Below are positions 32,317 through 51,449 of a stretch of 64,000 bases of DNA, in pieces. Numbering within the stretch: the first letter of the stretch is position 1; each line of letters starts with the position of its first letter. This DNA comes from a virus: the IMG/VR virus record IMGVR_UViG_3300018432_000013, positions 32,001 through 96,000 of that record; one strand, given 5' to 3'. The notes under the pieces were generated by a model. It was not told where the DNA came from, made no database searches, and saw nothing but the letters and a program-made list of their open reading frames with translations. The position numbers and the translations under genes are program-made.

Positions 32317-32861
32317 CAGTGACTCCAAAGGTGCGCGAGCTCCAGCACGACTTGCTCGAACGGCCAGAGCCGGCCGCCGTCGTCACCACCCATCGTCTCG
32401 CGCCAGACGTACTGGCCATTTTCGAGCGCGTACACCTCGACCACGCGCTCCACCGGATCGACCTCCCAGAGCGCGCCGATGCCGTTGCGCAAGTACTTCG
32501 CGCGCTTGTCGTCGGAGTCGTATTTGCGCGTCGAGGGCGAGAGCACTTCGCAGACCCAGTCCGGCGCGACCTTGTAGCCGGCGACCTCGAGCCCCTCCGT
32601 CGCGCGCTCCACGCGCCAGCCCGAGATATCTGGCGTGAGCACGTCACCACCAAGGTGCAGCTCGACCTCCGGCAGAAAAACCCAGCCCATTTCCCGCGCC
32701 GCCGCGTCGAGCCGGCTGAACAACCTGCCTGCGGCGAGCTGGTGGTTTCCACGCGGCCGCGCCTGCAAATAGAGCCGCCCGTCCAAGAGCTCGGCGCGCA
32801 TGTTTTCCGGCGCGTCCAATACGTCTTGGTAGGTGGCGTTGAGCTTGGCGGGCGTGAGCAT
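32316..32861 (-). CDS. Uma2 (DUF820) family endonuclease
   Basis: ATYQDVLDAPE...AELLDG, PDISGWR, APDWVCEVLSPST. Confidence 0.9.
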   Translation of the reverse strand: MLTPAKLNATYQDVLDAPENMRAELLDGRLYLQARPRGNHQLAAGRLFSRLDAAAREMGWVFLPEVELHLGGDVLTPDISGWRVERATEGLEVAGYKVAPDWVCEVLSPSTRKYDSDDKRAKYLRNGIGALWEVDPVERVVEVYALENGQYVWRETMGGDDGGRLWPFEQVVLELAHLWSH

Positions 32862-33427
32862 CAGAGCTCCTCAAGGTTATGCACGTCCTGAAACAGCAGC
32901 GTGACGTCAATCTGTGCGCCCAACCCGAGCGTGATGGTGGCTTCGCGCAGCGAAGCGTGCCCCCACCCAACCTCCGTGCGCCAAAAGCGCTCGAACAAAC
33001 CGTGCCGCGGGTCGACGAGCAGGTACTCCGCGAGAGACGGGATGGACTTGTAGTGTTCGAACTTCTCGCCCCGGTCGTAGTCCTCCGTGCTTGGGCTCAG
33101 CACCTCGGCGATCAGCACCGGGTTGAGCACCGTGTTGGTGGCCTTCGGGTGATACTCGACAGGCGCACAAACCACGGTCACATCCGGATACGTGATGAGC
33201 CCGCTCGGCGTCGCGATGCGCAGGTCTGAAGTGTGCGCGCCGCACCGCTTGCCACGAAGCTGCGGACCGAGCTGCGTAATCAGGGCTGCTGCGCCTGCCG
33301 CGTGCTCACGCGTTCCGCCCGTCATCGCGTAGACGGTGCCGTAGAGCCACTCGTGCTTTTCACGGCTCTGCTCCTCGAAGGCGATGTATTCGTCCAGCGT
33401 GAATCGCGTGTGTGCGGGCGTGAGCAT
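32861..33427 (-). CDS. Uma2 (DUF820) family endonuclease
   Basis: FTLDEY..HE..G..YAM.GGT.EH, TYPDVTVVC, EVLSPSTEDYDRGEKF. Confidence 0.9.
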   Translation of the reverse strand: MLTPAHTRFTLDEYIAFEEQSREKHEWLYGTVYAMTGGTREHAAGAAALITQLGPQLRGKRCGAHTSDLRIATPSGLITYPDVTVVCAPVEYHPKATNTVLNPVLIAEVLSPSTEDYDRGEKFEHYKSIPSLAEYLLVDPRHGLFERFWRTEVGWGHASLREATITLGLGAQIDVTLLFQDVHNLEEL

Positions 33428-33487
33428 CAGGACTCCTAACGTGGCTTGGTTTCTGCGAGGCGCCGGCAGGCGCCGAGGGTGGGGTGT

Positions 33488-33784
33488 TCAGGAGACCGCG
33501 CGCAGCGCATCGCGAATGAGCTTATCGAGTCGTACCGAAAGAGCGTCCGCGAGGGCAAGCGCATAGGGGAGGGTGGGGGTTGCACCGTTCTCGATGGCGC
33601 AGATTCCCTCCTTGCCGCGATAGCCGGAGCGCAGCGCGAGCTCCGCTTGGCTGAGCCCGAGCTCTAGCCGGCGCTCCTTCACCAGCTTGGCGAACGCCAG
33701 GGCGAAGTCCCGTCCAATCCGCGGAGGCGTCTTCTGGCCTGGTGGACGACCACGGCCACGCTTGCTTGCTGGGAGCTGGGGCAC
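33488..33784 (-). CDS. XRE-family HTH regulator with AT-hook-like N-terminus
   Basis: VKERRLELGLSQAELA...IENG..P....LADAL; KRGRGRP; GTG start 33784 inferred from GAGGT SD. Confidence 0.8.
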   Translation of the reverse strand: MPQLPASKRGRGRPPGQKTPPRIGRDFALAFAKLVKERRLELGLSQAELALRSGYRGKEGICAIENGATPTLPYALALADALSVRLDKLIRDALRAVS

Positions 33785-33836
33785 GGGGAGAGCGACCTCT
33801 GGGGAGCGGGGAGCGGGGAAGTGGGGAGCGGGGGAG

Positions 33837-34049
33837 TCAGGCAGGCGGAAGCGCTGCCTTCGCTTTGATGCATTCAGGGCACTTGTGGCGATAACCGAAC
33901 ACCTGATTGCCGTACGTGCGCCACCCCTCTGCTTTTGCACGCTCTAGTGCAATCGCGGGCGTCTCACTGTCGTACGCCGCCGCGAACATGCAGCGCGGAC
34001 TGAAGGCGTCACATCGCACCTCGAACACCTCGCATGTCTTGACGCTCAT
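33837..34049 (-). CDS. Small Zn-binding protein
   Basis: CD....C and GW...HKCPEC; SD GAGGAG. Confidence 0.6.
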   Translation of the reverse strand: MSVKTCEVFEVRCDAFSPRCMFAAAYDSETPAIALERAKAEGWRTYGNQVFGYRHKCPECIKAKAALPPA

Positions 34050-34554
34050 AGGAACAGCTCCTCAAGGGACCGCTGCTTATCCGATAGCACAAGAGCTGCA
34101 GATTTTTCTAACAAAAGTGCAGCCCTTATTTTTTGATACAGGTGATAGCAAATTTTGCGTAGACAGGCGCTGGGGTGGGCCCCCTACGGGGGCCTCAGCG
34201 GCCCCGAAAACGAGGGCGAGATGTAGGTGGAGGGGGTTGCCTACCTGTGCGCGGCCCCCCGCACACACGCTGCCTACACCCTCTCTGTGTCCCGCCTCGC
34301 TCGTTTCCGATTCCCCATACTGTAAAGATACGCGTTAGCGTCCCTCGCGTCAAGCATGCGCACGCTGGCGCCCCTGCTTTTCTCGCTCGCCTGACTCTGC
34401 TTTGCGTGTCTCACGTCTAAGTTATCGGCCACGTGGCGCGAGACTTGAGAGAGAAAGAGCAGGGCCCTGCTCTTTCGTATCACGCAAAGGGCGCTTGCCT
34501 CCCGTGCTTTTCTCGTATCTACTAAGAACACCTCAGACACGGGAGCACGAAACC

Positions 34555-35079
34555 ATGGATCTAATCTCGACCACATTCGCACTTCTCTCATTGGCCAGCC
34601 TAGCCGTTTATACCCTGGCCTGTACATGGGCCCTATTCGCGACCTTCCCGCTAGCTGAGACGCTGGCTGTGGCGCAAGAGAAGGCATTCCGCGGTAGCGC
34701 CTCCCGTAGCCTGCTCGCTCCCGTGCCTGCTCTTCTCTCGGTTGGCCCCCATTCTGAGAAAAGAGCAGATCCGATTGCCGCGCTAGCGCGGCAATCGAGC
34801 CTTGCCGCGCTAGCGGCGCTGGCTCCCAAGTGCGAGCGCCCTAGCGCCCGCACTTCTCTCGGCCTCAGGATGCGCCGCCCACTGTCGGCGCGCCTTCCCG
34901 CATGGCTGGCCGATGATTCGGCCAGCGCCTCAGAGCCAGCCGAACGGGTTATCACCATGGGCCCATGCGTCGCATTGCTCGTTCCGCTTTCTCTTTCTCA
35001 GAGGGGCGCTCAGACTCTGAAAAGCAGCCACGGGAAGCGCCGCAGATCGGCACCTGCAATGCTGAGGCTCGCAGCGTAA
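34555..35079 (+). CDS. Hypothetical membrane-anchored protein, first gene of the array
   Basis: Shared leader ACGGGAGCAC before the ATG; hydrophobic N-terminus. Confidence 0.45.
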   Translation: MDLISTTFALLSLASLAVYTLACTWALFATFPLAETLAVAQEKAFRGSASRSLLAPVPALLSVGPHSEKRADPIAALARQSSLAALAALAPKCERPSARTSLGLRMRRPLSARLPAWLADDSASASEPAERVITMGPCVALLVPLSLSQRGAQTLKSSHGKRRRSAPAMLRLAA

Positions 35080-35575
35080 GCAGATACGAGAAAGCGAACC
35101 TACGCAGCCTTGACGTGCAAACGTCAAGGCTTTCACGCGTTTATGGTGGAAAGGTCGGCGCGGAGAAAGCGGCCCGCAAGGGCTGCGGTGTAGCTCGGCT
35201 GGCGCCTCGCATGGGAAGCACGCCAGCCAAAGTGCGAAAAAGCGTGTGATTTCGCTAGGCGGAATCGTGCGCTCGGGAAGCGCCAGCGTGCAACGCTCGG
35301 GAAGGCCGGGATAGCCGGGCAGTCGCACGGGTAGCCGGTCGGCGCTTGCCAGGCTTGCGAGCCTGAGAAGGTCGGGAAGGCATCGGATAGGTGGTCGGCG
35401 CTTGCATAGCTCGGGAGGCGGTAGCGTGGCGCATGGGAGGCGCTAGCTAAGCTTGCCCGGGTAACCTTGGCTCCCATACCGCTAGCGCTAGCCGGGCCCC
35501 TCTTTTGAGCCACGGGAAGCGCCAGCGCCTTCCCGAGCGGCTGAAAGAGAAAAGCACCGATCGCTCTTTTTCGAT

Positions 35576-35602
35576 TCAAGTTAGGCGCGGCAGTGCCGAT
35601 AA
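35576..35602 (+). promoter_or_regulatory. Sigma28/FliA-type promoter 1
   Basis: TCAAGTTA-N11-GCCGATAA. Confidence 0.75.
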
Positions 35603-35635
35603 CTAGGGCAGCAGCCCAGCAAAGGAATTCCGAAC

Positions 35636-35830
35636 ATGAAGCGCCGCAATCGGATTGTTTCGTTCCTGCCCACCAGCAGCAGGCATTGTTTTTACCTCGC
35701 AGCTACCGGCAGACTCACTCAACTTCGCTTAGAGGCTCAACTGTTTACGTCGAAAGAGGCACACGAGGCGCAGGCCAGCAGCAAAGATAGATACGGGCCC
35801 GGGCAATGGGGCATCGAGGCCGTTGGCTGA
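35636..35830 (+). CDS. Small array gene
   Basis: 64 aa between repeat units, SD AAGGA. Confidence 0.6.
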   Translation: MKRRNRIVSFLPTSSRHCFYLAATGRLTQLRLEAQLFTSKEAHEAQASSKDRYGPGQWGIEAVG

Positions 35831-35857
35831 AATCGAACGGACCTACTCTTTTTCGAT

Positions 35858-35884
35858 TCAAGTTAAGCGCGGCAGTGCCGATAA
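35858..35884 (+). promoter_or_regulatory. Sigma28/FliA-type promoter 2 (probably leaderless)
   Basis: TCAAGTTA-N11-GCCGATAA, 7 nt before the ATG. Confidence 0.75.
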
Positions 35885-35891
35885 CTAGGGC

Positions 35892-36107
35892 ATGAGCCGA
35901 ATGGAACAGATTGATGCGCGATGGGAACTCATGAGCGACGCGATTCGCGCGCTTCGCAGCTTGGGCGTCTCGCTCGAAACGCGCGAACGCCTCAGCAAGC
36001 TCCTCGATGCCGCTTGGACGCATGAGCGGACACTCGAGTGCGACCGGCTAGTCCGCGCCAGCACCGACAAAGGCGCGCGCGAGATGGTCGCCCGCTGGAT
36101 CGGCTGA
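35892..36107 (+). CDS. Small array gene
   Basis: 71 aa filling the space between repeats. Confidence 0.65.
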   Translation: MSRMEQIDARWELMSDAIRALRSLGVSLETRERLSKLLDAAWTHERTLECDRLVRASTDKGAREMVARWIG

Positions 36108-36134
36108 AATCGAACGGGCCCGCTCTTTTTCGAT

Positions 36135-36161
36135 TCAAGTTAGGCGCGGCAGTGCCGATAA
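36135..36161 (+). promoter_or_regulatory. Sigma28/FliA-type promoter 3
   Basis: TCAAGTTA-N11-GCCGATAA. Confidence 0.75.
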
Positions 36162-36202
36162 TACTTATGAGGCGCACGCAAGCGCCTCACGGGAGCACGA
36201 CA

Positions 36203-36625
36203 ATGGTTACCACGCTTGAAAAGATCGCGGCGCTTGAAACACTCGAGCAACTTCACGCCAGCGGTACGGCTCCCATCTCGCAAGATGCCTTGACGGATCT
36301 GATCAATGGCATCCGTGGCGAGCTGCATGCCGCAGAAGAGCGCGCCGGATACGATGCCGCGCAATCTGAGCTTGCCGCGTTTCAAGCGGCTCACATCTAC
36401 ATGAGCCGCGGTCTCAAATATGCGGCCGATTGCGCTTGCTGCGGCGCACACATTGCGCGCGCGCTGAAATACTCGGGAGGCCTCCCGGCGTACTGGCGCA
36501 AGTCAGACAAAGCGATCGTTTGCGTCGATTGCTACAGCGCCAGCGAGTTGAGCCAGCGGGCCGTTGCGTACGGCTGGGCGAGCAAGCTTGACGGGAGCCG
36601 CATCTTGCGCGATTGCGAGAAATAA
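36203..36625 (+). CDS. Array gene with Zn-finger (CACC...CVDC)
   Basis: Shared leader; start MVTTLEK. Confidence 0.7.
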   Translation: MVTTLEKIAALETLEQLHASGTAPISQDALTDLINGIRGELHAAEERAGYDAAQSELAAFQAAHIYMSRGLKYAADCACCGAHIARALKYSGGLPAYWRKSDKAIVCVDCYSASELSQRAVAYGWASKLDGSRILRDCEK

Positions 36626-36647
36626 CCGGGCCCGCTCTTTTTTCGAT

Positions 36648-36674
36648 TCAAGTTAGCGCGGCAAGCGCCGATAA
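36648..36674 (+). promoter_or_regulatory. Sigma28/FliA-type promoter 4
   Basis: TCAAGTTA-N11-GCCGATAA. Confidence 0.75.
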
Positions 36675-36717
36675 CAATGGTGAGGCGCAAGCAAGCGCCC
36701 GAACGGGAGCACGGGAA

Positions 36718-36888
36718 ATGACTTTTGACGAGTGCGACGGCGCCACGGTTACGCGGAAGCAAGCTCTCCGGGAGATCAAGCGCCACGCTTACAAGGCGCT
36801 TGACGAAATGATTGCCGAGTTCGACGCCGAGGTAGGCGTGTGTGAGCAATACGATGCCATGGCTGTCTTGATCTGGCTTGGCTACTGA
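36718..36888 (+). CDS. Small acidic array gene
   Basis: Shared leader; MTFDEC...YDAMAVLIWLGY. Confidence 0.7.
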   Translation: MTFDECDGATVTRKQALREIKRHAYKALDEMIAEFDAEVGVCEQYDAMAVLIWLGY

Positions 36889-37059
36889 CATGCGCCGATT
36901 CGTTGCCGAAACCATCGCGGCAATCGGCTGGATCCGCTTTCACGTGGCGCACTTAGCCGCATACAAGCGCCAGCGCCGCAACAGAGACTTGCGCGGATCG
37001 CGTTAGTCGTATCTAATAATCAAAGGTCGCAATCGAGCGACCGAACGGGAGCACGGAAC

Positions 37060-37317
37060 ATGCAGCATAAGCACGAAGTACGTTTGGTGTGCGGCAATCG
37101 CTACGATGCCGGTTTCACGGTTGTTTATAGCAAGCGCGTCCGCTCTGAGGCATGCGCACTGCGGATTGCTCGCAAGCTTCGCGACCGCCATTGCGAGGAA
37201 ACCCGAAGCGGCCGCAAGTGTCGCGATTTTGTCGAAGTGGCGAATCGCGGTAGTGGTGAATGCCTGACGTTGGACGCAAACCTAGTCCCGAGTGTGGGCG
37301 AGCTCGGTTACTGGTGA
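37060..37317 (+). CDS. Small array gene
   Basis: Shared leader, 85 aa. Confidence 0.65.
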   Translation: MQHKHEVRLVCGNRYDAGFTVVYSKRVRSEACALRIARKLRDRHCEETRSGRKCRDFVEVANRGSGECLTLDANLVPSVGELGYW

Positions 37318-37403
37318 TAGCGGCGCCTGCTGGCGCTGGTCTCGCGTAAGCGCGTTTGCCTCGCAAGCGCCTTTACTCGAGTCAAGCAACGGGAGCACGG
37401 AAC

Positions 37404-37880
37404 ATGGCCAAACAAACGAAAATCGAATCTCACGAGCTTACCGCCCCTGCAAGTTGGGCAAGCTACTTGATCAATGGCGATGCCTCAGGATTCGATTACT
37501 ACAATACGCCCAACGATGCCGCAGGCGATCGCGATCGGGAGGCTTGCGAAGCATGGATTGCGGCGCTTGCGGCCAATAACGCGCACGTAGTGAGCGCCAA
37601 TGGTGAGCCGTTTTTCGCGCGCTATTGCGATGCCGATCGGGTAGTTTCCGGATTGCTTGCGGGCGACATGCTCACTTACCAGATCTTGCGGCATGCGCCG
37701 ATCTACTACTCGCTGTCTATCCCGCACTCGAGCACTCCCACGGAATGGCATCCAACCGAAGCAACGGGCCCGTTTGCCGTGCTTAGTCGCGGTGCATTTG
37801 CCACGGAAGCGGAAGCCCACGAATGGGCCCGCACTCATCTTGCGGGCCAGCCGTATAGCGTCCGGGAGTTTGCCGGCTAA
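37404..37880 (+). CDS. Array gene (WASYLINGD.SG phage family)
   Basis: Shared leader; P..WAS.LINGD.SG motif recalled from phage small-gene regions. Confidence 0.7.
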   Translation: MAKQTKIESHELTAPASWASYLINGDASGFDYYNTPNDAAGDRDREACEAWIAALAANNAHVVSANGEPFFARYCDADRVVSGLLAGDMLTYQILRHAPIYYSLSIPHSSTPTEWHPTEATGPFAVLSRGAFATEAEAHEWARTHLAGQPYSVREFAG

Positions 37881-37980
37881 TCTCTCGCGTATCGCGAAAG
37901 AGTGTTGACCGGGCCCGGCTATCTCGTATCTAATAATCTCATAGGCGCGCAAGTGAGCGAGCCGAACGGGAGCACGGGAA

Positions 37981-38178
37981 ATGGCCAGCCGCAAAATTGA
38001 GACTCTGATCGTGGAAACGCTAGCCGCACTTGAAATCGAACGCATGATCGCGGAAGCGATTGCGGAAGCGACGATCGGCGCCGCTATCGCGGAATGTCTA
38101 GCCCTCACCGATTTCGATTGCGAGCGCTCTTATGTGGGCCCGATCGTGGCTTGCTCAGATATCGCACTTGCCGCATAA
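37981..38178 (+). CDS. Small Ala/Glu/Ile-rich array gene
   Basis: Shared leader, 65 aa. Confidence 0.55.
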   Translation: MASRKIETLIVETLAALEIERMIAEAIAEATIGAAIAECLALTDFDCERSYVGPIVACSDIALAA

Positions 38179-38187
38179 AGAAACCGC

Positions 38188-38214
38188 TAAAGCGATACGC
38201 GATAGTGCCGATAA
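38188..38214 (+). promoter_or_regulatory. Sigma28/FliA-type promoter 5
   Basis: TAAA-N15-GCCGATAA, the enterobacterial consensus, with flanks unrelated to the other copies. Confidence 0.75.
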
Positions 38215-38258
38215 CTAAGTGTGAGGCGCAAGCAAGCGCCCGAACGGGAGCACGCAAC

Positions 38259-38699
38259 ATGGCAACGAAGTACAAGCTAGTCTCTGGTGATGTGTCCGGC
38301 GCGCCCGCACTGTATGCGGCGCGAATCGACGAAACCACGTTCGCGGTTTACGAGATCAATGAATGGGAGGATCTCGATTCCTCCGCGGTCGAGACTCACG
38401 GGAAATACAACGTTCAGGCGGGAATCGTCGATGTGCGCGGTTTCGACAGCCACACACAGATTCCCGGCTATTTTTCGGATAGCGTGCGGAGCGCGCTGCA
38501 ATCGTGCGGCTGGGAAATCGACGGCAGCGGCAATATCTGGTGTCCTTACAGTGGTGACATTGTCGTCCAAGCTGGCTCGCCCGCATTCGAACTGTGTCTA
38601 GTCGAATGCCTGTGGCAGTACGGGGCAAAAGATGTTGCGGCCGATGTGTCCGGCGATAACTTGCGCAAGCTCGTGCGGGAAGCGCGCGCGGCAGTCTGA
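38259..38699 (+). CDS. Acidic array gene
   Basis: Shared leader; start MATKYKL. Confidence 0.7.
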   Translation: MATKYKLVSGDVSGAPALYAARIDETTFAVYEINEWEDLDSSAVETHGKYNVQAGIVDVRGFDSHTQIPGYFSDSVRSALQSCGWEIDGSGNIWCPYSGDIVVQAGSPAFELCLVECLWQYGAKDVAADVSGDNLRKLVREARAAV

Positions 38700-38757
38700 T
38701 ACCGGCTAGTGGCGCTAGCGCCTTTACTTGAATCGAACGGGCCCGCTCTTTTTCGAT

Positions 38758-38785
38758 TCAAGTAAGCGCGGCAAGCGGACGATAA
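38758..38785 (+). promoter_or_regulatory. Sigma28/FliA-type promoter 6 (variant, within 14-bp inverted repeat)
   Basis: TCAAGTAA-N12-GACGATAA. Confidence 0.6.
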
Positions 38786-38828
38786 CAATGGTGAGGCGCA
38801 AGCAAGCGCCCGAACGGGAGCACGCAAC

Positions 38829-39293
38829 ATGGCAACGATTACGTGGAACATGGGCAGCAACGTGGAAGCGGTCTCAATCAAAACGGCTAGCGCGCTCGAA
38901 ATCGCGATCGCAACCATCGTTGCAGAGCACGCCGATAGCTACCCGGACACGGGAGCCGTTGGATTCCTTAAGGATCTCGCGTACGGCGGTTGCGAGTCCG
39001 GCATGGTGGGCGAGCTTGTCTACTACCGCGATACGTGCGCCTTTTATGAGACACATCGGCGCGAGATCGCCACGCTATTGAGCGAGATGCTTGCCGATGT
39101 AGGCGCAGACTCACCTCAAGGCCTGTTCGGTGAAAAGTGGGATCGCGAAGATCCGCTCGCATTGGAGGAAACGAATCAAAACTTGCTTGCGTGGTTCGCT
39201 TGCGAGGAAACGGCGCGCCGGTTGACGCAACTTGCGCGTGAGAGCTTGCCGGATGCGAGCGCTGGCGCGCGCGCGCTTGAAACACTCCTCTAG
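38829..39293 (+). CDS. Acidic helical array protein, possible DNA mimic / anti-restriction protein
   Basis: FLKDLAYGGCESGMVGELVYYRDT..FY...NLLAWFACEE; acidic; function is inference. Confidence 0.55.
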   Translation: MATITWNMGSNVEAVSIKTASALEIAIATIVAEHADSYPDTGAVGFLKDLAYGGCESGMVGELVYYRDTCAFYETHRREIATLLSEMLADVGADSPQGLFGEKWDREDPLALEETNQNLLAWFACEETARRLTQLARESLPDASAGARALETLL

Positions 39294-39299
39294 TCGCTA

Positions 39300-39860
39300 C
39301 TTGCTCCCGTGGCGCAGCGAATCGGGCCCGCACTCTGCAAAACGAGTGCGGGCCCGATTCGCGTTTGCGGTTCGTTTGCGGCCGCTGGCGCTGGCTCCCG
39401 TGGCAACGCTGGCTCCCGTGCTCCCGTGGCGGCGCTGGCTTCCCGAGCGGCGCTGGCGCTGGCTTGCCGTGCTCCCGTGCTCCCGAGCGGCGCTGGCGCT
39501 GACCTTGCTCCCGTGGCGTGCTCCCGAGCGGCGCTGGCTTGCCGTGGCGCTGGCTTGCCGTGCTTCCCGAACGGCGCTGGCGTTCAAACTAGCCTCCCAT
39601 GCGCCTCGGGAAGGCGCGCCAGCGCCAGCGGCTAGCCGGACATAGCCGCACGCTACGCTGGCGCCGCTTGCGAGCAGCTAGCGCGCTTCCCGTGCTTCCC
39701 GTGCTTCCCGTGGCGCTGGCTCCCGTGCTCCCATGCTCCCGTGCGGCGCTGGCTCCCGTGGCTGGCTCCCGTGGCTGGCTCCCGTGGCTGGCTCCCGTGG
39801 CGCTGGCGCTGGCACTGGCTTGCCGTGTTCCCGAGCGGCGCTGGCTTCCCGTGGCATTGC
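39300..39860. repeat. Low-complexity tract of GCTCCCGTG / GCTGGC repeats
   Basis: 12 exact GCTCCCGTG plus variants; 13-bp unit GGCTCCCGTGGCT about x4 at 39751-39800. Confidence 0.9.
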
Positions 39861-39890
39861 CGCGACTTGCGAGAATCTTTCTTTTTCGAT

Positions 39891-39918
39891 TCAAGTAAAC
39901 GCGGCAAGCGGCCGATAA
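39891..39918 (+). promoter_or_regulatory. Sigma28/FliA-type promoter 7
   Basis: TCAAGTAA-N12-GCCGATAA. Confidence 0.65.
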
Positions 39919-39961
39919 CTTAGGTGAGGCCAGCGAGACGCTAGCCGGATGCGGAAAAAGA

Positions 39962-39996
39962 TTGACGGCAAACGAGCAGACCGGCTAATCTGATAC
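39962..39996 (+). promoter_or_regulatory. Sigma70-like promoter overlapped by TAATCTGATAC operator-like site
   Basis: TTGACG-N18-TAATCT. Confidence 0.55.
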
Positions 39997-40012
39997 TAGA
40001 AAGAGCGAGCAG

Positions 40013-40195
40013 ATGAAAAAGCCAACCAAGTATGTGTACGAATACATCGTACAGGGCCACTACGGTCAGGGATGGGAAGACCTGACCGCGCACGACACGC
40101 GCAAAGCGGCACGCGACGAGCGGCGCGTGTACGCGGCAAACGAGCCGGGCCCGCATCGGGTCATCTTCAGGCGCTCTCTCCGGCACACGGTTTGA
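40013..40195 (+). CDS. Small array gene (YG.GWE family)
   Basis: VQGHYGQGWEDL...Y..NE. Confidence 0.7.
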   Translation: MKKPTKYVYEYIVQGHYGQGWEDLTAHDTRKAARDERRVYAANEPGPHRVIFRRSLRHTV

Positions 40196-40316
40196 GCACA
40201 CGGGATCTCGCACACGGGATCTGCACACGGGTTGAGCCCTGCACACGAGCACACGGTCTCGCGCACACGGCTCAGAACGCGAGCACGCGGTCTGACAGCA
40301 CACGGGAGCACGAATC

Positions 40317-40628
40317 ATGGCAATGAACGCTGACATCGAACACGCGCGCACACGGCTTCTCGCGGTCCTCTCGGAGGGCTCAAAAGTCTACTGCGTACTT
40401 CGCACACGGTCTAAGTCGGGAATGTCGCGCACGGTGTCTTTCTTCACCTACCACGACGGGCACATGGTTTGGCTTGACGGCTACATGCACACGGTTTGCG
40501 GCTTCGCCCGCAAAGGCGATTCGCTGGTCATCAAGGGTGTTGGGCAGGACGCGGGGTTGCACGCGGTTTCGACGCTAGCCGCGAAGCTCTTCGGCCGCTC
40601 CGATGCGCTAGGCCACGAGTGGCTCTGA
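40317..40628 (+). CDS. Array gene (G..VY..LR..S.SGMSR phage family)
   Basis: Shared leader; motif recalled from uncharacterised phage proteins ending in WL. Confidence 0.75.
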   Translation: MAMNADIEHARTRLLAVLSEGSKVYCVLRTRSKSGMSRTVSFFTYHDGHMVWLDGYMHTVCGFARKGDSLVIKGVGQDAGLHAVSTLAAKLFGRSDALGHEWL

Positions 40629-40736
40629 ACTGAACATGCACGCGGGATCGCGCGCTGAGGTTCTCTCGCAATCCGCACACGGGATCGCGCTCGAATCTGA
40701 GCACACGGGCTCAACTTTCACGGGAGCACACGGCAC

Positions 40737-41000
40737 ATGGAAAAACATTACAGCTACGGTTCAGGCTCAACGGGCTGCATGTACGATTCAGGCCCGCACA
40801 CGGCTTCGACTCTCGAAGACGCAATCGAAGGCGCGCTGTGTATCTTCGACGACCTTAGCGACGGCGCGCTCGCTTGTGCACGCGCGGATCTACTCGCACA
40901 CGGGATCCACTACTTCCCTGAACTAGTACGCGGATACGCTGGCGCCGATTACGTCGAAGTGGTCGAGCAAGCCGGTCCCTGCCCTGAGTCCGACGACTGA
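40737..41000 (+). CDS. Small acidic array gene
   Basis: Shared leader, 87 aa, G..GCMYD. Confidence 0.7.
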   Translation: MEKHYSYGSGSTGCMYDSGPHTASTLEDAIEGALCIFDDLSDGALACARADLLAHGIHYFPELVRGYAGADYVEVVEQAGPCPESDD

Positions 41001-41111
41001 ACGCACACGGGATCGCACGCGAGGATCGCGCGCTGAGATTCTTCCGCCAGCCTGCACACGGCTTGCGCTCGAATCTGAGCACACGGGCTCAACTTTCACG
41101 GGAGCACGAAC

Positions 41112-41303
41112 ATGGGAAACATGAAGCACTACACGCTACAGATTCGCAAGCCTGGCCGCGCATATCGCACGGTCGAGACTTCGACCGACGCCGCATCGAT
41201 TCGCTGGGCTTTCGACCAGCACTTGGTGCCTTACGGTGAGAGCAGCGTGCGAATCTTGGACACGAACGGCGCAGTCATCATGCGCGCCACGCCAAAGCAG
41301 TAA
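41112..41303 (+). CDS. Small array gene
   Basis: Shared leader, 63 aa. Confidence 0.7.
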   Translation: MGNMKHYTLQIRKPGRAYRTVETSTDAASIRWAFDQHLVPYGESSVRILDTNGAVIMRATPKQ

Positions 41304-41406
41304 CGCACACGGGATCGCACGCGGGATCGCGCGCTGAGATTCTCTCGCAATCCGCACACGGGATCGCGCTCGAATCTGAGCACACGGGCTCTAAGGAGTA
41401 AGACAC

Positions 41407-41775
41407 ATGGCAAGGCAGCGCAAACTTGGTTCACGGCAGAAGGCAAACGCGGACGCTGCATTCCTGGCCGCATTCGAGCGCGCAATGGTACTACTCGGCG
41501 CCACGAAGCGCGCGGACTGGACGTGGACAGCACATGAGTACGAAATCGAAACGCGTGCAGGTCGACTCGGCATCACGGGTTATCCCACGTCGCTCTCGGA
41601 GCCAGGCGGTTGGGTGGCGATGCGCTTCGACGACACCGAGCGCGCGAACACACTCGGACTCGGACAGCTCCTCAACAGGAATAGCGGCAAGTACAACGTA
41701 GATAGCCTGTACGGCTGCTCAGACGCGACCGAAGTTACCGACACGATCATGCGCCACGTACAGCGCGCGCTCTGA
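41407..41775 (+). CDS. Array gene
   Basis: SD TAAGGAG, 122 aa between repeats. Confidence 0.7.
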   Translation: MARQRKLGSRQKANADAAFLAAFERAMVLLGATKRADWTWTAHEYEIETRAGRLGITGYPTSLSEPGGWVAMRFDDTERANTLGLGQLLNRNSGKYNVDSLYGCSDATEVTDTIMRHVQRAL

Positions 41776-41882
41776 AAGATTGCGCACGCGGGATCGCGCG
41801 CTGAAATCTGCACACGGGCTTGCCTCGCACGCGGTCTGCAGATTTGAGCACACGGGCTCAACTTTCACGGGAGCACACGGTC

Positions 41883-42068
41883 ATGAAATACATCCTGAAG
41901 CAAGAGACGAACGACGGGATTTGGACTAGCGAAGCGTTCGAGGCGCCGCACGAGCACGCGGTAAAGCAAGCGGTCGTCGCCGGCTACCTGAACGGCTCGG
42001 CACGCTGGGCAGAGACGCTCGACGGCACGCGCATCTACGGCCTAGACAAAAAAGGAAAGCAGCTCTGA
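41883..42068 (+). CDS. Small array gene
   Basis: Shared leader; start MKYILKQ. Confidence 0.7.
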   Translation: MKYILKQETNDGIWTSEAFEAPHEHAVKQAVVAGYLNGSARWAETLDGTRIYGLDKKGKQL

Positions 42069-42181
42069 GTCGCACACGGGATCGCACGCGGGATCGCGCG
42101 CTGAGATTCTTTCGCCAGCCTTGCACACGGCTTGCGCTCGAATCTGAGCACACGGGCTCAACTTTCACGGGAGCACGGAAC

Positions 42182-42406
42182 ATGGAAAAAGACACAAGCC
42201 ACCTAGGCGCGCTACAGGTTCGCCTCTCGCACGAACGAAACCGCCTGAACGCAGCGAAGACGGAAGGCGAGCGCGAACTTCGCCAAGTCTGGGTCGCTCA
42301 GATTGAAAAGGAAATCGCAGGCGAGAAGGCTTTCCTCGGGATGGTTGACGAATCTCCTACGACTGAGATGAGCGCTGACGACCTTCTCGCTGAACTTCTC
42401 GCCTGA
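42182..42406 (+). CDS. Small helical array gene
   Basis: Shared leader, 74 aa. Confidence 0.75.
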   Translation: MEKDTSHLGALQVRLSHERNRLNAAKTEGERELRQVWVAQIEKEIAGEKAFLGMVDESPTTEMSADDLLAELLA

Positions 42407-42510
42407 ACCTGCACGCGGGATCGCGCGCTGAGATTCAACCGCCAGCCTGCACACGGCTTGCGCTCGAATCTGAGCACACGGGGCTCAACGCACACGGGAG
42501 TTTACGAAAC

Positions 42511-42726
42511 ATGGAAACGAAAAAGCAGCACACGGCGCCAGTTCTTAGGCTCGCTTCGGTTCGGCGGACGCGCACACTCTTCGTGCTGCGCTACGAAGAG
42601 GGACAGGGCGAGAGGCGCAAAGGTGATTATCTCTACCTGCTCACGCGGGATCGCGCAGACAAGGTCATCGACCGCGCGCGCCGCCTTGGAATCCGCGTCT
42701 TTCGGATCCCCTACCGCATTCGCTGA
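42511..42726 (+). CDS. Small basic array gene
   Basis: Variant leader ACGGGAG, 71 aa. Confidence 0.6.
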   Translation: METKKQHTAPVLRLASVRRTRTLFVLRYEEGQGERRKGDYLYLLTRDRADKVIDRARRLGIRVFRIPYRIR

Positions 42727-43129
42727 CTCGCACACGGGATCTCGCACACGGTTTCGTGCATAGCAGACTGCGCTTCGGGTTTGGGGCCTCCATCGTGCTC
42801 CCACACTCGCCCAAACTACGAAGCGCTCTCTGCTGCACACGAACTCCGCACACGGCACGCACCTCGCACACACGGATTTCCAATTAAGTTCTACGCCACG
42901 TACGAATACGTCACACGCATGCACGCGGTAGTCACGCTAACGGACGAGCAAAAACAACTTTGCCGGTGCTTACCGCGTCGAGTACCGACCCGGCCACAAC
43001 ATCTACGAAACAAGCTTCAAACACGCCGAGCAAGCCGCAGCCCTCAAAGGCGGTCGGCTTGAGCGGTTCACCCGGGTCTGAAGCACACGGCACGCACCTC
43101 GCACACGGCATTCAAGGAGGAACACGGCA

Positions 43130-43387
43130 ATGGCACACGGATTCACACGCGACTGCCTCGTCTCAATCATCTACGACGTGCTCGACAAGCGCTGGGACGG
43201 CGACATGAGCCCATACAAAATCTCAGAAGTCGCAGCCGACGCACTCATCACAGCCGGCATCGAGGTCGCTACAGAACCGAGCGAAGAAGAGCGCGAGATT
43301 GCCGCATGCGAAGCGCGCGCCGAGCTCGATGAGTACCTGCTCGATCTTCACAACGATCAACTCGCTGACGAGGCGATGGGCAAATGA
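43130..43387 (+). CDS. Acidic hypothetical protein
   Basis: SD AAGGAGG. Confidence 0.7.
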   Translation: MAHGFTRDCLVSIIYDVLDKRWDGDMSPYKISEVAADALITAGIEVATEPSEEEREIAACEARAELDEYLLDLHNDQLADEAMGK

Positions 43388-43575
43388 ACGACGAAGAACG
43401 CAAGAAACTACTGCGCTCGGCTATGCTTGCCTGCCGCAGTCCGATGTACACGATGCACATCGAGACGCGCGAGCAACTTCTCGCGGGCCTCGAACACGCG
43501 AACATCAGCGCAGCCGATCTCGTTCGTTTTGCCATCGACACGCACCGCAAAAACAGCTGAAGGAAACCCGCCACC

Positions 43576-43866
43576 ATGCCAACGCCCACCCCCATCAAGC
43601 TCACGCTCGTACGCGCAGGCCTCGAAGCCATCGAGCGGCACGTAGAGAAGATTCCCTATCACGCAAACCTCATCCGCTCCGACCTCGAAGCGAGCTACCT
43701 GGAGCGCGAGCGCGCGCTCTTCATCTCGCAGCAGTGCGTCAGCATCCGCGATGCGCTCGCGAGCGCTCTGCGCGCAATCAACGCGATCGACAAGGACGCG
43801 CAGCAATACCTTGCCGAGACCGATCCGAACCCTTCATCTCACGCCCGACTCCCGAATAAAGATTGA
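43576..43866 (+). CDS. Hypothetical protein
   Basis: 96 aa, SD AAGGA. Confidence 0.6.
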   Translation: MPTPTPIKLTLVRAGLEAIERHVEKIPYHANLIRSDLEASYLERERALFISQQCVSIRDALASALRAINAIDKDAQQYLAETDPNPSSHARLPNKD

Positions 43867-43890
43867 CGGTGCTACCGGCGGTGCTACCAT
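43863..43890 (+). promoter_or_regulatory. Sigma70 promoter of the TA operon with direct-repeat operator
   Basis: TTGACG-N16-TACCAT with extended TG; GGTGCTACC twice; ATG 7 nt downstream. Confidence 0.65.
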
Positions 43891-43897
43891 GGCTGCT

Positions 43898-44119
43898 ATG
43901 GCTACCGTCCACAAGATCAGCATCTCGCTCGGCTCTGAAGACCTCGAATGGGCACGCAAAAAGGCCGAAGAAACTGCGAGTAGTGTCTCCGCAGTGATGA
44001 GCGGCGCACTGCGCCGGGAGCAACAACACGAAGCGCGACTAAAGCTTCTCGAGTGGCTCGGTACGGACGACATCACCGAAGCAGACCGTGAAGCCATACG
44101 CCTAGAACTACGCTCGTGA
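43898..44119 (+). CDS. RHH-type antitoxin (VapB-like)
   Basis: KISISL...A......SVSA....ALR; GTGA overlap with the PIN gene. Confidence 0.75.
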   Translation: MATVHKISISLGSEDLEWARKKAEETASSVSAVMSGALRREQQHEARLKLLEWLGTDDITEADREAIRLELRS

Positions 44120-44493
44120 CACGCGGCATTACGTTCGACACGGGCGCACTGATCGCGCTTGAACGCCGCCAAAAACGCATGCGCAGCATCGTGACTGAAG
44201 CCACCCTTCAAGGTCTCACGATCACCATTCCAGCTCCTGTGCTCACCGAGTGGTGGCGCAAACCAAGCGCAGCCCAGACGAATATTCTCCGCGCGTTCGA
44301 GGTGGAGCCGCTCACAGAACGCCTCGCAAAGCTCGCTGGTGAGGCCATCGAAAGCGTCGCACACGCAACACCCATCGACGCCATCGTGATGGCCAGCGCA
44401 GCATCACGAGGAGACATCGTGTTCACGAGCGACTTCGACGATCTTGATCGCTTGCGCGCCTATTTTCCCAACGTCCGAGTCTTACGCACATGA
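44116..44493 (+). CDS. vapC: PIN-domain toxin (VapC-like)
   Basis: FDTGALIA, VLTE, DAIV, TSD.DD acidic PIN residues. Confidence 0.85.
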   Translation: MTRGITFDTGALIALERRQKRMRSIVTEATLQGLTITIPAPVLTEWWRKPSAAQTNILRAFEVEPLTERLAKLAGEAIESVAHATPIDAIVMASAASRGDIVFTSDFDDLDRLRAYFPNVRVLRT

Positions 44494-44585
44494 CCTATCC
44501 GCTAATCAGAATCGAATAAGCTTGACGGCCGCTCCGTTTATCAGATACGATTCAGAGGTCCAGTAACGAAAGCAGTACCCACCCC

Positions 44586-44786
44586 ATGAAGTCCAAAGTC
44601 GTCGTCGTGCTCGTGTTTCTCGGCTCGCTCAGCATCGGCTGGGCGACGGCTCCCGCACCCGCAGAGTGCCGCATGTGCCAGTCCAAGGCCTGCTCAAGCG
44701 ATCGCAGCTGCGGCGACGCCTGCACGTGCGTGTGGCCTGACGGCAAGGACTACAAGCGCGGCGTCTGCGTGCGGATGGGGAGCTGA
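44586..44786 (+). CDS. Secreted Cys-rich peptide
   Basis: Signal peptide plus 7 Cys in about 40 aa; upstream TTGACG-N18-TACGAT promoter. Confidence 0.65.
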   Translation: MKSKVVVVLVFLGSLSIGWATAPAPAECRMCQSKACSSDRSCGDACTCVWPDGKDYKRGVCVRMGS

Positions 44787-44788
44787 AC

Positions 44789-45265
44789 GTGACCCAACAC
44801 GAAGAGCGCGACCGACGCACGGGACGCTACGCACAGGGCGCGCTCTGCGACTACTGCGGCAAGCCCACCGGCGTCGAGTACTGCACCGACGACGAAGTAT
44901 GCGGCGCAAGCGACGGGCCTGGTTTTCTGCTCTGCAGCCGCAAAGGCTGCATCAAGGCTCGCATCCAGCTGAACGTGAAAGCGCGCGACGCGATCTACAC
45001 GGCGCAACGTGCGCTGAACGAGGGCAGGGCTGCGCCTGCACTCACGCTGGCGGTGCACAGCGTGCTCGCAGCCGCGTATCCAGGCGGCAAGCGCGCCGAC
45101 CCGAAGGTCATGCTCACGCACGTGGCCCAAGATCACGACTTCGATACGGCGCTCTGCGGGCGCGTGCGTGCAGGTGCGCTCTGCGACGTCGAAGAGGAGG
45201 GCCCGCCAACCTGCACCACCTGCGCACAAATCATGGCGCGCCTGCAAAGCACCTCGACGACGTAA
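44789..45265 (+). CDS. Zn-finger protein
   Basis: CDYC, LLC...C, H...ALCG...CTTC. Confidence 0.6.
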   Translation: MTQHEERDRRTGRYAQGALCDYCGKPTGVEYCTDDEVCGASDGPGFLLCSRKGCIKARIQLNVKARDAIYTAQRALNEGRAAPALTLAVHSVLAAAYPGGKRADPKVMLTHVAQDHDFDTALCGRVRAGALCDVEEEGPPTCTTCAQIMARLQSTSTT

Positions 45266-48789: not shown

Positions 48790-49359
48790 TTGTTTACTCC
48801 TCTGGCTGGGCGCCGGACTTCAGCGCCTCACCAAAGAGAGCATAGCATGCCCGTATCGAATAAGGGCAAGTTCAAAGCACACGCGCCCGGAGGACTACCG
48901 CAGCGCTCAAAGGCCGGGCCTTCCCAGCCAAACACCGAGATGTCACGCGCCGCACGGCCTTCACCCCGCGCGTGTGGCTCGGTGTTCTGCCTCGCAACAC
49001 TCAGGTCCGCTACCTTACCCATCGCCCTCCACACGCGGATTTGCCCAAACTTCGCTTGAAATCACTTATCCGATATCGCACCATGTACAGACGGATCGAC
49101 AGGCTCAAACCCTCAGATTCGATCCGAAAGACAACTTGCGGATCACCTCGGCCTACTCATATCCACGAGACCATCGATTGGATCTTGCGTTGGTTCGACG
49201 CCGCTGTTGAAGTTCTCTGGCCATTCCGGGTCGCCGCGTCACCCAACGTTCGTCATTTCCTGCGTCTCATCATCTCTCCGTCGCCTCGTCTCTCCGTCTC
49301 CGCTGCCCTCCCGACCTTCGTCTTCAGGGGCTTTTCCGCAAATTCTAGGAGCCAACCCC

Positions 49360-50001
49360 ATGCGCGCTGACGTGCAGTCTCCAGCCGACGTGATCACCGA
49401 TGAGATTGAGCGGATCATTGCGAAGCTAGCGCGGGACGTGGCAGAGCGTCTTCGCTCCTGCGACCGCTACCAAGCCAGACAAGACATCGCACAGGCCTTG
49501 CGCCTGGTCGCGCTGCAAGAAGCGCCCAAGTATCGCGGCGACAACGGCGCGACCCTAGCGACATTCCTCTACCGAGCGCTGCGTGTCAAAGCCTGGTCGG
49601 TCGGCTTCTGGCTCGACCTGCCCACGCATGTCGCAAAGAACAAGCGCACGGGCGTTTGGACCACGCGCACGGCTGCGCAGACCGACAAGCGCGCTACGGA
49701 TGCACGCGCACCGAGAGACGACTTACCGCCTGCCGAGGCCATGGACCTGATCCGCGACCCCGAAGACCTCGAGAGCCGCCTCGCAGACCGCGAGATCGCC
49801 GCGCGTGTCGAGGCCGTTCTGCACGAGGATCCACAGCACGAGGCGATTGCTCGTGTGCTGTTCGACGGCGAGAAGGCACCCGACGTGGCACGCGACACGG
49901 GGGTACCCATCGGCGACCTTCGCAAGTGCATCGTACGCACACGCGCACGGCTTCGACGCGACCCGACGCTGCAAGAGCTCTACTTCCGCTGCCTGGCGTG
50001 A
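49360..50001 (+). CDS. Phage-encoded sigma70-family sigma factor (regions 2 and 4)
   Basis: DIAQ.....LQEA.KY..DNGATLATFLY..LR (region 2-like) and DVARDTGVP....RK...R.R..LR (region 4 HTH); SD AGGAG. Confidence 0.7.
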   Translation: MRADVQSPADVITDEIERIIAKLARDVAERLRSCDRYQARQDIAQALRLVALQEAPKYRGDNGATLATFLYRALRVKAWSVGFWLDLPTHVAKNKRTGVWTTRTAAQTDKRATDARAPRDDLPPAEAMDLIRDPEDLESRLADREIAARVEAVLHEDPQHEAIARVLFDGEKAPDVARDTGVPIGDLRKCIVRTRARLRRDPTLQELYFRCLA

Positions 50002-50018: not shown

Positions 50019-51449
50019 CTAGTAGGAAGGCTCGCTCGCCTCAAGCGCAAGCGAGCTCGTCTCGGTGACGATGGCGTGCCCCTCCTTCTTGTACGCCCGT
50101 TTGCGATCACGGTAGTGGTTCTCGAGGATGCGGTTGTGGGTGTCCTCGAAGTCCCACACCTCGAATGTATCCTTGGCACCCGCCACACGCCGCATGCCGC
50201 GCCCGATGCGCTGCAAGAGCGCTATCACGCTCTTGCCACCTGCCGCGAGCACCACGCTTTCGAGCGAAGGGACGTCGATGCCTTCGTTGAAAATCTGACT
50301 CGTCACGAGCACGTCAATCTCTCCGCGCACAAGGCGCTGCAGCGCGCGCTCTCGCTCTTTCGTGGCACTGGCGCCAAACACGAACTCGGCGTTGATACCC
50401 ATGCGGCGAATCCCCTTCAACAGAAACTCGCCGTGTTCGAGCAGGTCGACGAACACCATGGCGGGCTTTTTGGCGCGCTGCACCGCGCGCAGCACCGCGC
50501 GATTGCGCCCGACCGACTGCACGATCCCGCGCTCGCGAATGACGTTCCAGAGCGAGCTGTAGACCTCCTCGGCATCGTGCCGCACCATGTGCACGCGCGA
50601 GCGTGCGAGAAACCCGCGCTGGATGAGCTCTTCAGCGGGCACCAGGTACGCCACCGGCCCAAGCAGCCCGACCGCCACGCTTGAGCGCTTGTCGCCGCGC
50701 GCGAGCGGCGTACCCGACACACCCCAGCGGTAGTAGGCGTTGACCGCCCGCTGCAGCACACGCACGAAGCGGTCCGCCGCGGCCGTGTGCGCCTCGTCGA
50801 CGATCAGCGCCTCGGCCGATTCGAGCTGGCGCTTGACCGCGGGGTTCTTCAGGTTCGCGGCGAGCGAGTCGATGGTGGCGATGGTGATGCGATGGCCGAG
50901 CTCCTTGTCCCCGTCGCCGAAGTAGCCGATGTCTTCTGGGCGGTGACCGTGCAGCTCGGCGCGCAGCTGAATGCGCGCGCCTATCTGCCGCATGAGCCCC
51001 TTGCGGTGCACGACGATCAGAAAGCGCATGGCCGGGAAGATGCGCAAGAGGGCCGCGATGACCTCCGTCTTGCCGCCCCCCGTACCCATCTGCAGAAGCC
51101 CGCGCACACGCGCGACGAGCACCTCTGCGGCTTCGCGCTGATAGTCGTAGAGCCACGCGAGGTCTGCAGACCAGTCGGGCACGGCCGGCACCTTGCGCGC
51201 ATCCGCCACGGTCAGATCCACACCCTCCGCGCGCGCCTTGCGCTCGACCATCGTGGTGAAGCCGGCTGGGAACTCACACGTTTCGAAGTCGAAGAAGTGC
51301 TCGAAGCGCTCCCCGTCGTACTTGGGCCGCCCCGTGTAGTCGCGGATGAACTTCGGCGTGCGCAGCACGAGGTAGTTCCACAGCCAGTCGCGCTCCTCCT
51401 GCGTTCCATCCGTGACGACTGACCAGGTGTTGTGCAGTTCGATGCGCAT
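50019..51449 (-). CDS. SF2 DEAD/DEAH-box helicase (UvsW-like)
   Basis: LYDYQ, TGGGKT, DEAH, SGT, EGIDVP, QRIGRGMR. Confidence 0.92.
   Translation of the reverse strand: MRIELHNTWSVVTDGTQEERDWLWNYLVLRTPKFIRDYTGRPKYDGERFEHFFDFETCEFPAGFTTMVERKARAEGVDLTVADARKVPAVPDWSADLAWLYDYQREAAEVLVARVRGLLQMGTGGGKTEVIAALLRIFPAMRFLIVVHRKGLMRQIGARIQLRAELHGHRPEDIGYFGDGDKELGHRITIATIDSLAANLKNPAVKRQLESAEALIVDEAHTAAADRFVRVLQRAVNAYYRWGVSGTPLARGDKRSSVAVGLLGPVAYLVPAEELIQRGFLARSRVHMVRHDAEEVYSSLWNVIRERGIVQSVGRNRAVLRAVQRAKKPAMVFVDLLEHGEFLLKGIRRMGINAEFVFGASATKERERALQRLVRGEIDVLVTSQIFNEGIDVPSLESVVLAAGGKSVIALLQRIGRGMRRVAGAKDTFEVWDFEDTHNRILENHYRDRKRAYKKEGHAIVTETSSLALEASEPSY

Follow-up and report, generated by a model that had tools for sequence, protein, structure and literature searches.

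Between two early genes of a phage represented by a 112,926-bp IMG/VR virus record (~63% G+C) lies a tract of about 480 bp of non-coding DNA holding approximately 27 inverted copies of an early-gene leader and its ribosome-binding site (RBS). The window, i.e., the whole 64,000-nt stretch analysed, covers bases 32001–96000 of this record, and all positions are window coordinates unless stated otherwise, with genome coordinates being obtained by adding 32000; the features of the locus are collected in Table 1. The early and replication genes called from 34.5 kb onward are all rightward, except for a helicase gene on the minus strand (50019–51524), and among the rightward ones are a DnaB-like helicase, a Toprim protein, PolA and a gp32-like protein. 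Mapping of the surroundings placed a Uma2-family endonuclease at 32861–33427, an endonuclease VII domain protein at 55064–55834 and a gp32-like ssDNA-binding protein at 61436–62302. Pfam finds no sigma-factor domain in the ORF at 49207–50001 and only a borderline HTH_36 match in the “rep” gene. Outside of the window (G000:C1:106130-110410), a hairpin repeat of ~33 nt, GTCTCAGCTTCAAGGGCGCTGAGCAGCCGTTGC, is iterated in a long array with variable spacers of 20–35 nt. The 605-aa ORF next to it, on the minus strand, has a Cas12f1-like TNB domain (PF07282, E 5.6e-13), and the two together have the look of a type V CRISPR-like or TnpB-like system carried by the phage.

The best matches of the phage's polymerase and terminase are only 22–29% identical and belong to unrelated phages, no T5-like phage being among the best matches listed; blastn of 38000–42000 against 50,697 phage records gave no match, scanning IMG/VR for a 16-mer of the promoter cassette and for a 15-mer of the tract yielded single chance matches only, and neither the DUF7222 protein nor the polymerase, used as query, led to any related locus. 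The closest relative, P0003 (62% identity), is encoded on a 117,050-bp JGI contig. The record's 123-bp “direct terminal repeat” is located inside a 121-aa HTH-like ORF and is therefore to be understood as an assembly overlap (circular assembly) and not as the physical ends of the genome.

Table 1. Features of the repeat tract and its surroundings (window coordinates).
Feature	Position	Strand	Details
Structural genes	up to ~33.4 kb	minus	large terminase, portal, prohead protease
HTH regulator	33488-33940		
Thirteen target leaders	34538-42181	+	CACGGGAGCAC(G) or AACGGGAGCACG before ATG; family D9
Second non-coding tract	35140-35560	+	more degenerate; 8 sense-oriented and 3 antisense units
DUF7222 gene	38829-39293	+	154 aa; last of the type A cassette series; Pfam PF23864, E 5.6e-19
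Perfect 19-bp inverted repeat	arms 39317-39335 and 39344-39362		8-nt loop; pair I11, 100% complementary
Tract, left block	39385-39585	+	inverted leader-like copies in tandem, ~5 units of 40-41 nt
Tract, central segment	39586-39684	+	mostly unique; one sense unit CTCGGGAAG at 39605, plus GCCAGCGCCAGCG
Tract, right block	39685-39856	+	GCTTCCCGT x3.1 (39685-39712), GCTGGCTCCCGTG x4.2 (39748-39801), mixed units
Sigma28/FliA-consensus-like promoter	39891-39918	+	TCAAGTAA, 12-nt spacer, GCCGATAA; last of seven cassettes
Sigma70-like promoter	39962-39991	+	TTGACG, 18-nt spacer, TAATCT; seen by eye, absent from the stricter consensus scan
60-aa gene	40013-40195	+	follows the sigma70-like promoter
Strand-polarised array	40183-43140 (about 40.0-43.9 kb)	+	37 of the genome's 38 plus-strand GCACACGG copies

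Twelve exact plus-strand copies of GCTCCCGTG had been listed in the initial annotation, and all of them were recovered at their positions (39303, 39394, 39412, 39420, 39471, 39507, 39719, 39735, 39752, 39765, 39778 and 39791), the one at 39303 standing outside of the array, ahead of the hairpin. The variants it had mentioned are there as well: GCTTCCCGTG four times (39685, 39694, 39703 and 39844), GCTTGCCGTG also four times, and GCTCCCGAG. Over the window, GCTCCCGTG occurs 22 times, against a mean of 1.17 and a maximum of 6 in dinucleotide shuffles, and a looser motif extends the count to about 27 antisense-oriented units between 39395 and 39853, plus the central sense unit. The exact complement of the RBS decamer, said to occur at least twice, has two copies in the genome (39418 and 39469), both of which lie within the tract. 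What had been described as one run of tandem repeats is indeed repetitive, but not uniform, as it is made up of three parts. The left block (period 40, 3.5 copies and 79% matches according to TRF; spacings of 40, 41 and 43 in family D13) repeats at 40–41 nt, which is about one leader length, and contains both exact decamer complements as well as the only 12–14-nt perfect leader matches. The two motifs of the central segment are able to pair with the flanking antisense units in the minimum-free-energy fold, and the right block carries a 9-nt complement to the leaders, CACGGGAGC, along with tandems (the 9-mer and the 13-mer of Table 1) whose copies are 100% identical, which points to recent slippage. 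Unit spacing is irregular throughout (8, 9, 13, 16–18, 24–26 and 40 nt), units of 8–13 nt overlap, and about 5 of the 27 (CTTGCCGTG) have no CCC core.

The tract is more than an anti-Shine–Dalgarno (anti-SD) motif, as its units reproduce most of the early-gene leader in inverted and degenerate form: they are reverse complements of the stretch that begins at the hairpin loop and stops shortly ahead of the ATG (the 3' half of the 5' hairpin plus the SD), and AGCG-CC-N3-CGGGA is invariant when the leaders are aligned with the reverse-complemented units. That no credible ORF is present had been noted before and holds true, given that the repeat periods (8, 9, 13, 16, 26 and 40 nt) are mostly no multiples of 3, that the six longest ORFs across the tract have no match in PHROG, and that the only ATG-started one among the longest (99 aa) translates as Arg/Leu/Pro-rich repeat text; a low-complexity protein-coding gene was rejected on these grounds (periods of 8, 13, 16 and 40 nt, six ORFs devoid of PHROG matches). 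G-quadruplex potential in the tract is unremarkable, with none found at loops of up to 7 nt and one cluster at loops of up to 12 nt.

The sequence that is inverted in the tract belongs to a standardised set of leaders. The RBS decamer ACGGGAGCAC occurs 13 times on the plus strand of the whole 112.9-kb genome, always within 34539–42167 and 5–9 nt before an ATG (34555, 36203, 36718, 37060, 37404, 37981, 38259, 38829, 40317, 40737, 41112, 41883 and 42182), and this fixed distance to start codons indicates that the primary meaning of the motif is translational. Genes of type A (36.2–38.8 kb) share a three-part cassette consisting of a promoter (TCAAGTTA, 11-nt spacer, GCCGATAA), a 5' hairpin (GGCGC-AAGCAA-GCGCC) and an RBS segment (CGAACGGGAGCACG, 4–5 nt, ATG), and the DUF7222 gene directly ahead of the tract is one of the genes with the shared RBS (decamer at 38814). 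Each of the 13 leaders has a perfect complement of 11–14 nt in the tract, ending 1–8 nt before the ATG, and four type A leaders match the tract over 25–29 nt at 83–86% (pairs I1, I2, I4 and I5), the longest inverted pairs being 28 nt at 86% (I1) and 29 nt at 83% (I2). Among about 340 other loci compared, none has a shared RBS 9-mer together with a cluster of its complement. In the high-GC, DUF7222-encoding contig L150, one leader, CCTTGGAGGATGTACCG and then a start codon, is reused ahead of at least two genes (9335-9355 and 10263-10285), and standardised leaders may be common in such early arrays.

How the tract might be transcribed depends on what surrounds it. The perfect 19-bp inverted repeat after the DUF7222 gene is followed by a moderately T-rich tail on the plus strand, where a consensus scan finds a terminator-like site (39343–39367), and it is likely a terminator and/or an RNA-processing or 3'-stabilising hairpin, judging by its sequence. 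Neither the consensus scan nor reading by eye recognised a promoter at the start or in the interior of the tract, and no terminator was recognised at its end. Lacking a promoter of its own and being preceded by a hairpin with a T-rich tail, the tract could give rise to an RNA only by read-through; since the gene immediately upstream bears a leader and shares its strand, any read-through would yield that RNA. Directly to the right of the tract stands the last cassette promoter (family D15), 90% identical to the cassette at 38747. From 35576 to 39918 there are seven such promoters, which we take to resemble the E. coli FliA consensus, each before a small gene, with one of them reading TAAA-N15-GCCGATAA (~38185–38211), and a leftward copy of the -10 box is found at 34417–34440. 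In the cassettes, the -35 part, TTCGATTCAAGT, also serves as the 3' arm in an inverted repeat; the 5' arm, ACTTGAATCGAA or AAATCGAA, comes after the stop codon of the preceding gene (36102–36140, 38725–38765 and other cassettes; I17), so that the sigma28-type promoter box could be occluded in a hairpin of the upstream transcript.

On the level of RNA, the two strands of the tract behave differently in silico. The fold of the whole tract has a z-score of -2.55 against dinucleotide shuffles on the plus strand and of +0.79 on the minus strand. Plus-strand UCCC cores have a predicted unpaired probability of 0.67, compared to 0.33 for the rest of the tract and to 0.52 +/- 0.04 when the spacers are shuffled and the cores kept fixed (0 of 200 shuffles reach 0.67), and with each block taken alone, the observed core exposure is reached by none of 100 shuffles; the GGGA cores of the minus strand are unpaired at 0.53, against 0.475 +/- 0.031 in spacer shuffles, 9 of 200 of which reach it. 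The asymmetry arises because GCUGGC self-pairs via G-U wobbles on the plus strand only. Core exposure in the second tract, at 35 kb, is not significant versus shuffles. RNAduplex energies for the whole tract (-54 kcal/mol with the array leaders versus -46 +/- 7 with control start sites, i.e., about 1 SD) discriminate poorly, because any GC-rich 50-mer finds partners within 510 nt.

Given that pairing is a direct consequence of an inverted SD-leader copy being present in an RNA, and that the motif is translational in its primary meaning, a multivalent anti-leader RNA made by plus-strand read-through is ranked first and is our best, if tentatively held, reading of the tract. The initial annotation had proposed that such an RNA could base-pair with the RBS of all 13 array genes and act as a shut-off timer. 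Complementarity turned out to be stronger than it had claimed, and the exposed cores lend the proposal a modest in silico argument, while a promoter of its own is missing from the tract and the hairpin stands before it. In its full form, the scenario is possible, though rather doubtful: the phage would make a long anti-leader RNA with more than 20 exposed anti-SD sites that titrates the common leader of 13 of its own early messages and times their shut-off. An inverted leader array would have been inserted between two normally adjacent genes and enlarged by slippage; transcripts from the upstream cassettes (the nearest promoter being at ~38758–38785) would pass the 19-bp hairpin, or be processed at it, and run through the tract. 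The GCUGGC/GCGCUGGC spacers would then pair mutually via G-U wobbles, leaving most UCCC(G) cores single-stranded, and each core might pair with the GGGAG Shine–Dalgarno and flanking bases of the shared leader, blocking 30S binding on as many as 13 early messages simultaneously and possibly making RNase III substrates of them, with a delayed, dose-dependent shut-off or a buffer as the outcome. What the sequence shows is the array, its homology and complementarity to the leaders, where it lies and the predicted exposure of its cores, whereas transcription of the tract, pairing in vivo and the effect on translation are what we infer.

The strand asymmetry of core exposure and fold fits this anti-leader RNA; the perfect complements to every leader, the place of the tract behind a leader-bearing gene and the restriction of the decamer complement to the tract speak for it as well. 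There are also several considerations against it. The very strong T-tailed hairpin ahead may leave the tract largely untranscribed; descent alone (one inverted leader copy followed by tandem amplification) can explain the complementarity, and the leader hairpin may be where the predicted spacer pairing comes from. Recent slippage, and not refined structure, is suggested by the perfect 13-mer x4 and 9-mer x3, the units devoid of a CCC core and the RNAduplex gain of only about 1 SD likewise count against it, the sense orientation of the second tract (35140–35560) fits poorly, and the tract is absent at this position from the other phages examined.

Two rivals have to be weighed seriously, the first of which is that the tract acts as DNA, namely, as a cis-acting array bound by a protein, of the phage or of the host, that recognises leader DNA as well, serving as a boundary, roadblock or titration element between transcription units, or as a DNA-entry or genome-end-proximal zone. 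We consider this unlikely, if far from negligible. The second tract is of importance here: its sense units, C-A/T-C/T-GGGA(A)G (CTCGGGAAGCGCCAGCG and variants), are often followed by CGCCAGCG, and it is flanked by a hairpin (35107–35130) and the first sigma28-type promoter, so both tracts occupy hairpin-tract-promoter gaps, i.e., the places least expected to be transcribed, and the sense units at 35.1–35.5 kb and antisense units at 39.4–39.9 kb bracket the block of sigma28 cassettes. A long inverted duplication between the two tracts was considered and rejected, there being no long collinear alignment. Beyond the tract, the GCACACGG copies of the strand-polarised array, a stretch that has none on its minus strand, form a ~100-bp type B intergenic repeat, also occur inside ORFs, and supply the SD with the last copy of each run; the CACGG core is thus found leftward in the tract (about 20 antisense copies) and rightward beyond ~40.0 kb (about 44 sense copies in the next 3 kb), and this divergence of polarity near 40.0 kb would suit a DNA site. 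So would the T5 non-coding repeat regions as an analogy (bioRxiv 10.1101/866236) and the fact that the record's 123-bp repeat is an assembly overlap, which leaves room for a genome end here. A DNA site is at odds, however, with the irregular spacing and overlapping units, which are unlike known operator or iteron arrays, with the two tracts sharing short motifs only, and with the motif being fixed at 8–9 nt from start codons, which points to a meaning in RNA and translation; no candidate binding protein was identified, and a T5 version suffers from the phage being unrelated to T5. Chi-like protection of a genome end was likewise considered because of the diverging polarity.

The second serious rival, to which we would give the benefit of the doubt without thinking it probable, is that the tract has no function and arose as a by-product: cassette recombination would have created a leader fragment in inverted orientation, which was then expanded by slippage and unequal crossing-over and has been tolerated in an inter-operon gap. 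Comparison with other phages bears on this directly. Homologues of the 60-aa gene are found in L153, L195 and L196 (56–59% identity by tblastn), which are unrelated, low-GC phage contigs, and there the gap between the DUF7222 gene and this homologue is 3 to ~90 bp, versus 719 bp here, whereas in L150, a contig of high GC, the DUF7222 gene is immediately followed by a different small gene and no tract is present; adjacency in other phages set against a 719-bp interval in this one indicates a lineage-specific insertion, and at this position the tract is absent from all four (L153, L195, L196 and L150). That the two genes are a conserved adjacent pair in contigs as different as L153 (1885-2430) and L196 (240-860) suggests, from gene order, that their products work together. 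Also in keeping with a by-product are the 100% identical sub-repeats (13-mer x4.2, 9-mer x3.1 and 16-mer x2.1) in an irregular hierarchy of periods, and the density of recombination-prone repeated cassettes in the region, which is comparable to the shuffling of PeSL units (PMC2839356). A similar 13-nt tandem, GCTCCCGTGTTCG x4.5, is found just behind an unrelated, cupredoxin-like gene in a Burkholderiales MAG (L227:7425-7490), where it shares a 9-mer core and the 13-nt period with the right block; the resemblance may be fortuitous or may hint at the clade of the host, the locus being the one inspected out of at least 120 unrelated matches, in many phyla, from a triple-motif scan of bacterial genomes. 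On the other hand, the two tracts add up to about 1 kb of non-coding repeats, which is much for a compact phage genome, the plus-strand-specific core exposure exceeds that of shuffled controls, and, given any read-through, the RNA would pair with 13 leaders whether selected to do so or not.

The remaining explanations fare much worse. A minus-strand RNA, which had been put forward as a CsrB-like decoy, would use about 22 SD-like GGGA(G) motifs to absorb 30S subunits, a CsrA/RsmA-type protein or a leader-binding regulator; the minus strand does read as tandem leader-like modules without start codons, and the number of GGA motifs is within the CsrB range, but this idea is highly improbable, as no leftward sigma70-like or sigma28-like promoter was seen by eye in 39860–40100, the neighbouring called genes are all rightward, the hairpin has no U-tail on this strand, the fold is no better than that of shuffles, the GGGA cores are not clearly exposed and Rfam gives no CsrB/Rsm match at E up to 5. 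Hardly credible is a replication origin with iterons beside a small AT-rich stretch and promoters: two direct-repeat blocks around a unique centre, with the AT-richer 39870–39900 and two promoters directly to the right, might evoke one, but the units overlap, are short and follow no regular spacing, that AT-rich segment belongs to every sigma28 cassette, the DnaB, primase-like and PolA genes are 14–20 kb away, and GC skew has no turning point here. An iteron origin or incA-type titration array was rejected as a class in view of the overlapping, irregular units of 8–13 nt and the absence of an adjacent initiator gene.

Were the anti-leader RNA reading true, the phage would be directing an RNA sponge at itself, assembled from inverted copies of the very sequences that the sponge targets. 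The post-transcriptional shut-off of early host-takeover genes in lytic phages is poorly understood beyond a few models, and in the present case a putative regulator and its 13 targets would be legible in the sequence itself; an array that works would, moreover, be a natural design for repressing many genes with one standard RBS, and as such useful for synthetic biology. Should the tract prove to be a DNA site or a product of slippage, it would still show repeated regulatory cassettes generating new non-coding phage DNA.

To our knowledge, and in the literature searched, there is no description of a multivalent self-directed anti-leader RNA from a phage. Phage lncRNAs of 0.5 kb that are abundant, though of unknown role, do exist (PMC7698491). 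As regards the genomic context rather than the tract itself, T4-type PeSL cassettes, in which a promoter/stem-loop unit bounds small early genes that recombination reshuffles (PMC2839356), and the host-takeover module of SPO1, which packs 24 small early genes (PMC10531801), resemble the locus in being arrays of small early genes, each with a repeated promoter/stem-loop unit, whereas a tandem array of inverted leader copies is not described in the portions of these two sources that were available. Among the genes of phage T5 that enter first there are three non-coding repeat regions, with inverted partners ~3 kb apart and nine direct repeats (bioRxiv 10.1101/866236). Its left terminal repeat is like the present locus in having 0.2–1.2 kb of non-coding DNA with direct and inverted repeats among small early genes, and related repeats in opposite orientation a few kb apart (bioRxiv 10.1101/866236); the T5 regions, however, are conserved across T5-like phages and contain DnaA boxes. 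In our tract, the units derive from an RBS leader and no DnaA-box-like TTATCCACA motif was seen by eye in its GC-rich sequence, and the T5-like injection stop suggested in the initial annotation finds no support, because the phage, by its polymerase and terminase matches, is not T5-like.

CsrB and RsmZ carry many repeats of one short motif on a non-coding RNA, and it is in the many copies of a short motif on one non-coding stretch, suggestive of titration by multivalency, that the tract resembles them; it differs in that its GGA-bearing strand has neither a promoter nor a predicted display of the motif in hairpin loops, and CsrB, RsmY and RsmZ are not among the hits of an Rfam scan of 33000–45000 at E up to 5, which returned three chance-level, unrelated matches only. 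The c4 RNA of P1 and P7 is a single processed antisense RNA of ~77 nt with two short recognition sites, located upstream of its target. If the tract is an RNA, it shares with c4 an antisense encoded on the strand and in the transcription unit of its targets, acting in trans on the ribosome-binding region, and departs from it in being a multi-copy array that is downstream of some targets and upstream of others; Rfam C4 was not matched in the same scan. Unpaired UCCC motifs also pair with SD sequences in RsaE, RNAIII and LhrC of Gram-positives (PMC2790875, PMC4132741). With these, the tract has in common C-rich UCCC cores that are unpaired (as predicted here for 22 copies of [CU]UCCC[GA], at the exposure given above) and complementary to GGGAG-type SD sequences, and several cores per RNA, so that one molecule can bind several messages. 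Because it has no recognisable promoter or terminator of its own, its hairpin preceding rather than ending it, and no Rfam match, the tract cannot be counted as a member of this group or as a c4 RNA. RsaE, RNAIII and LhrC are discrete RNAs of 100–500 nt with their own promoter and terminator and 1–4 motifs, whereas the tract presents about 22–27 motifs in a 480-nt tandem array within a phage genome, and its complementarity spans most of the shared leader instead of the SD alone.
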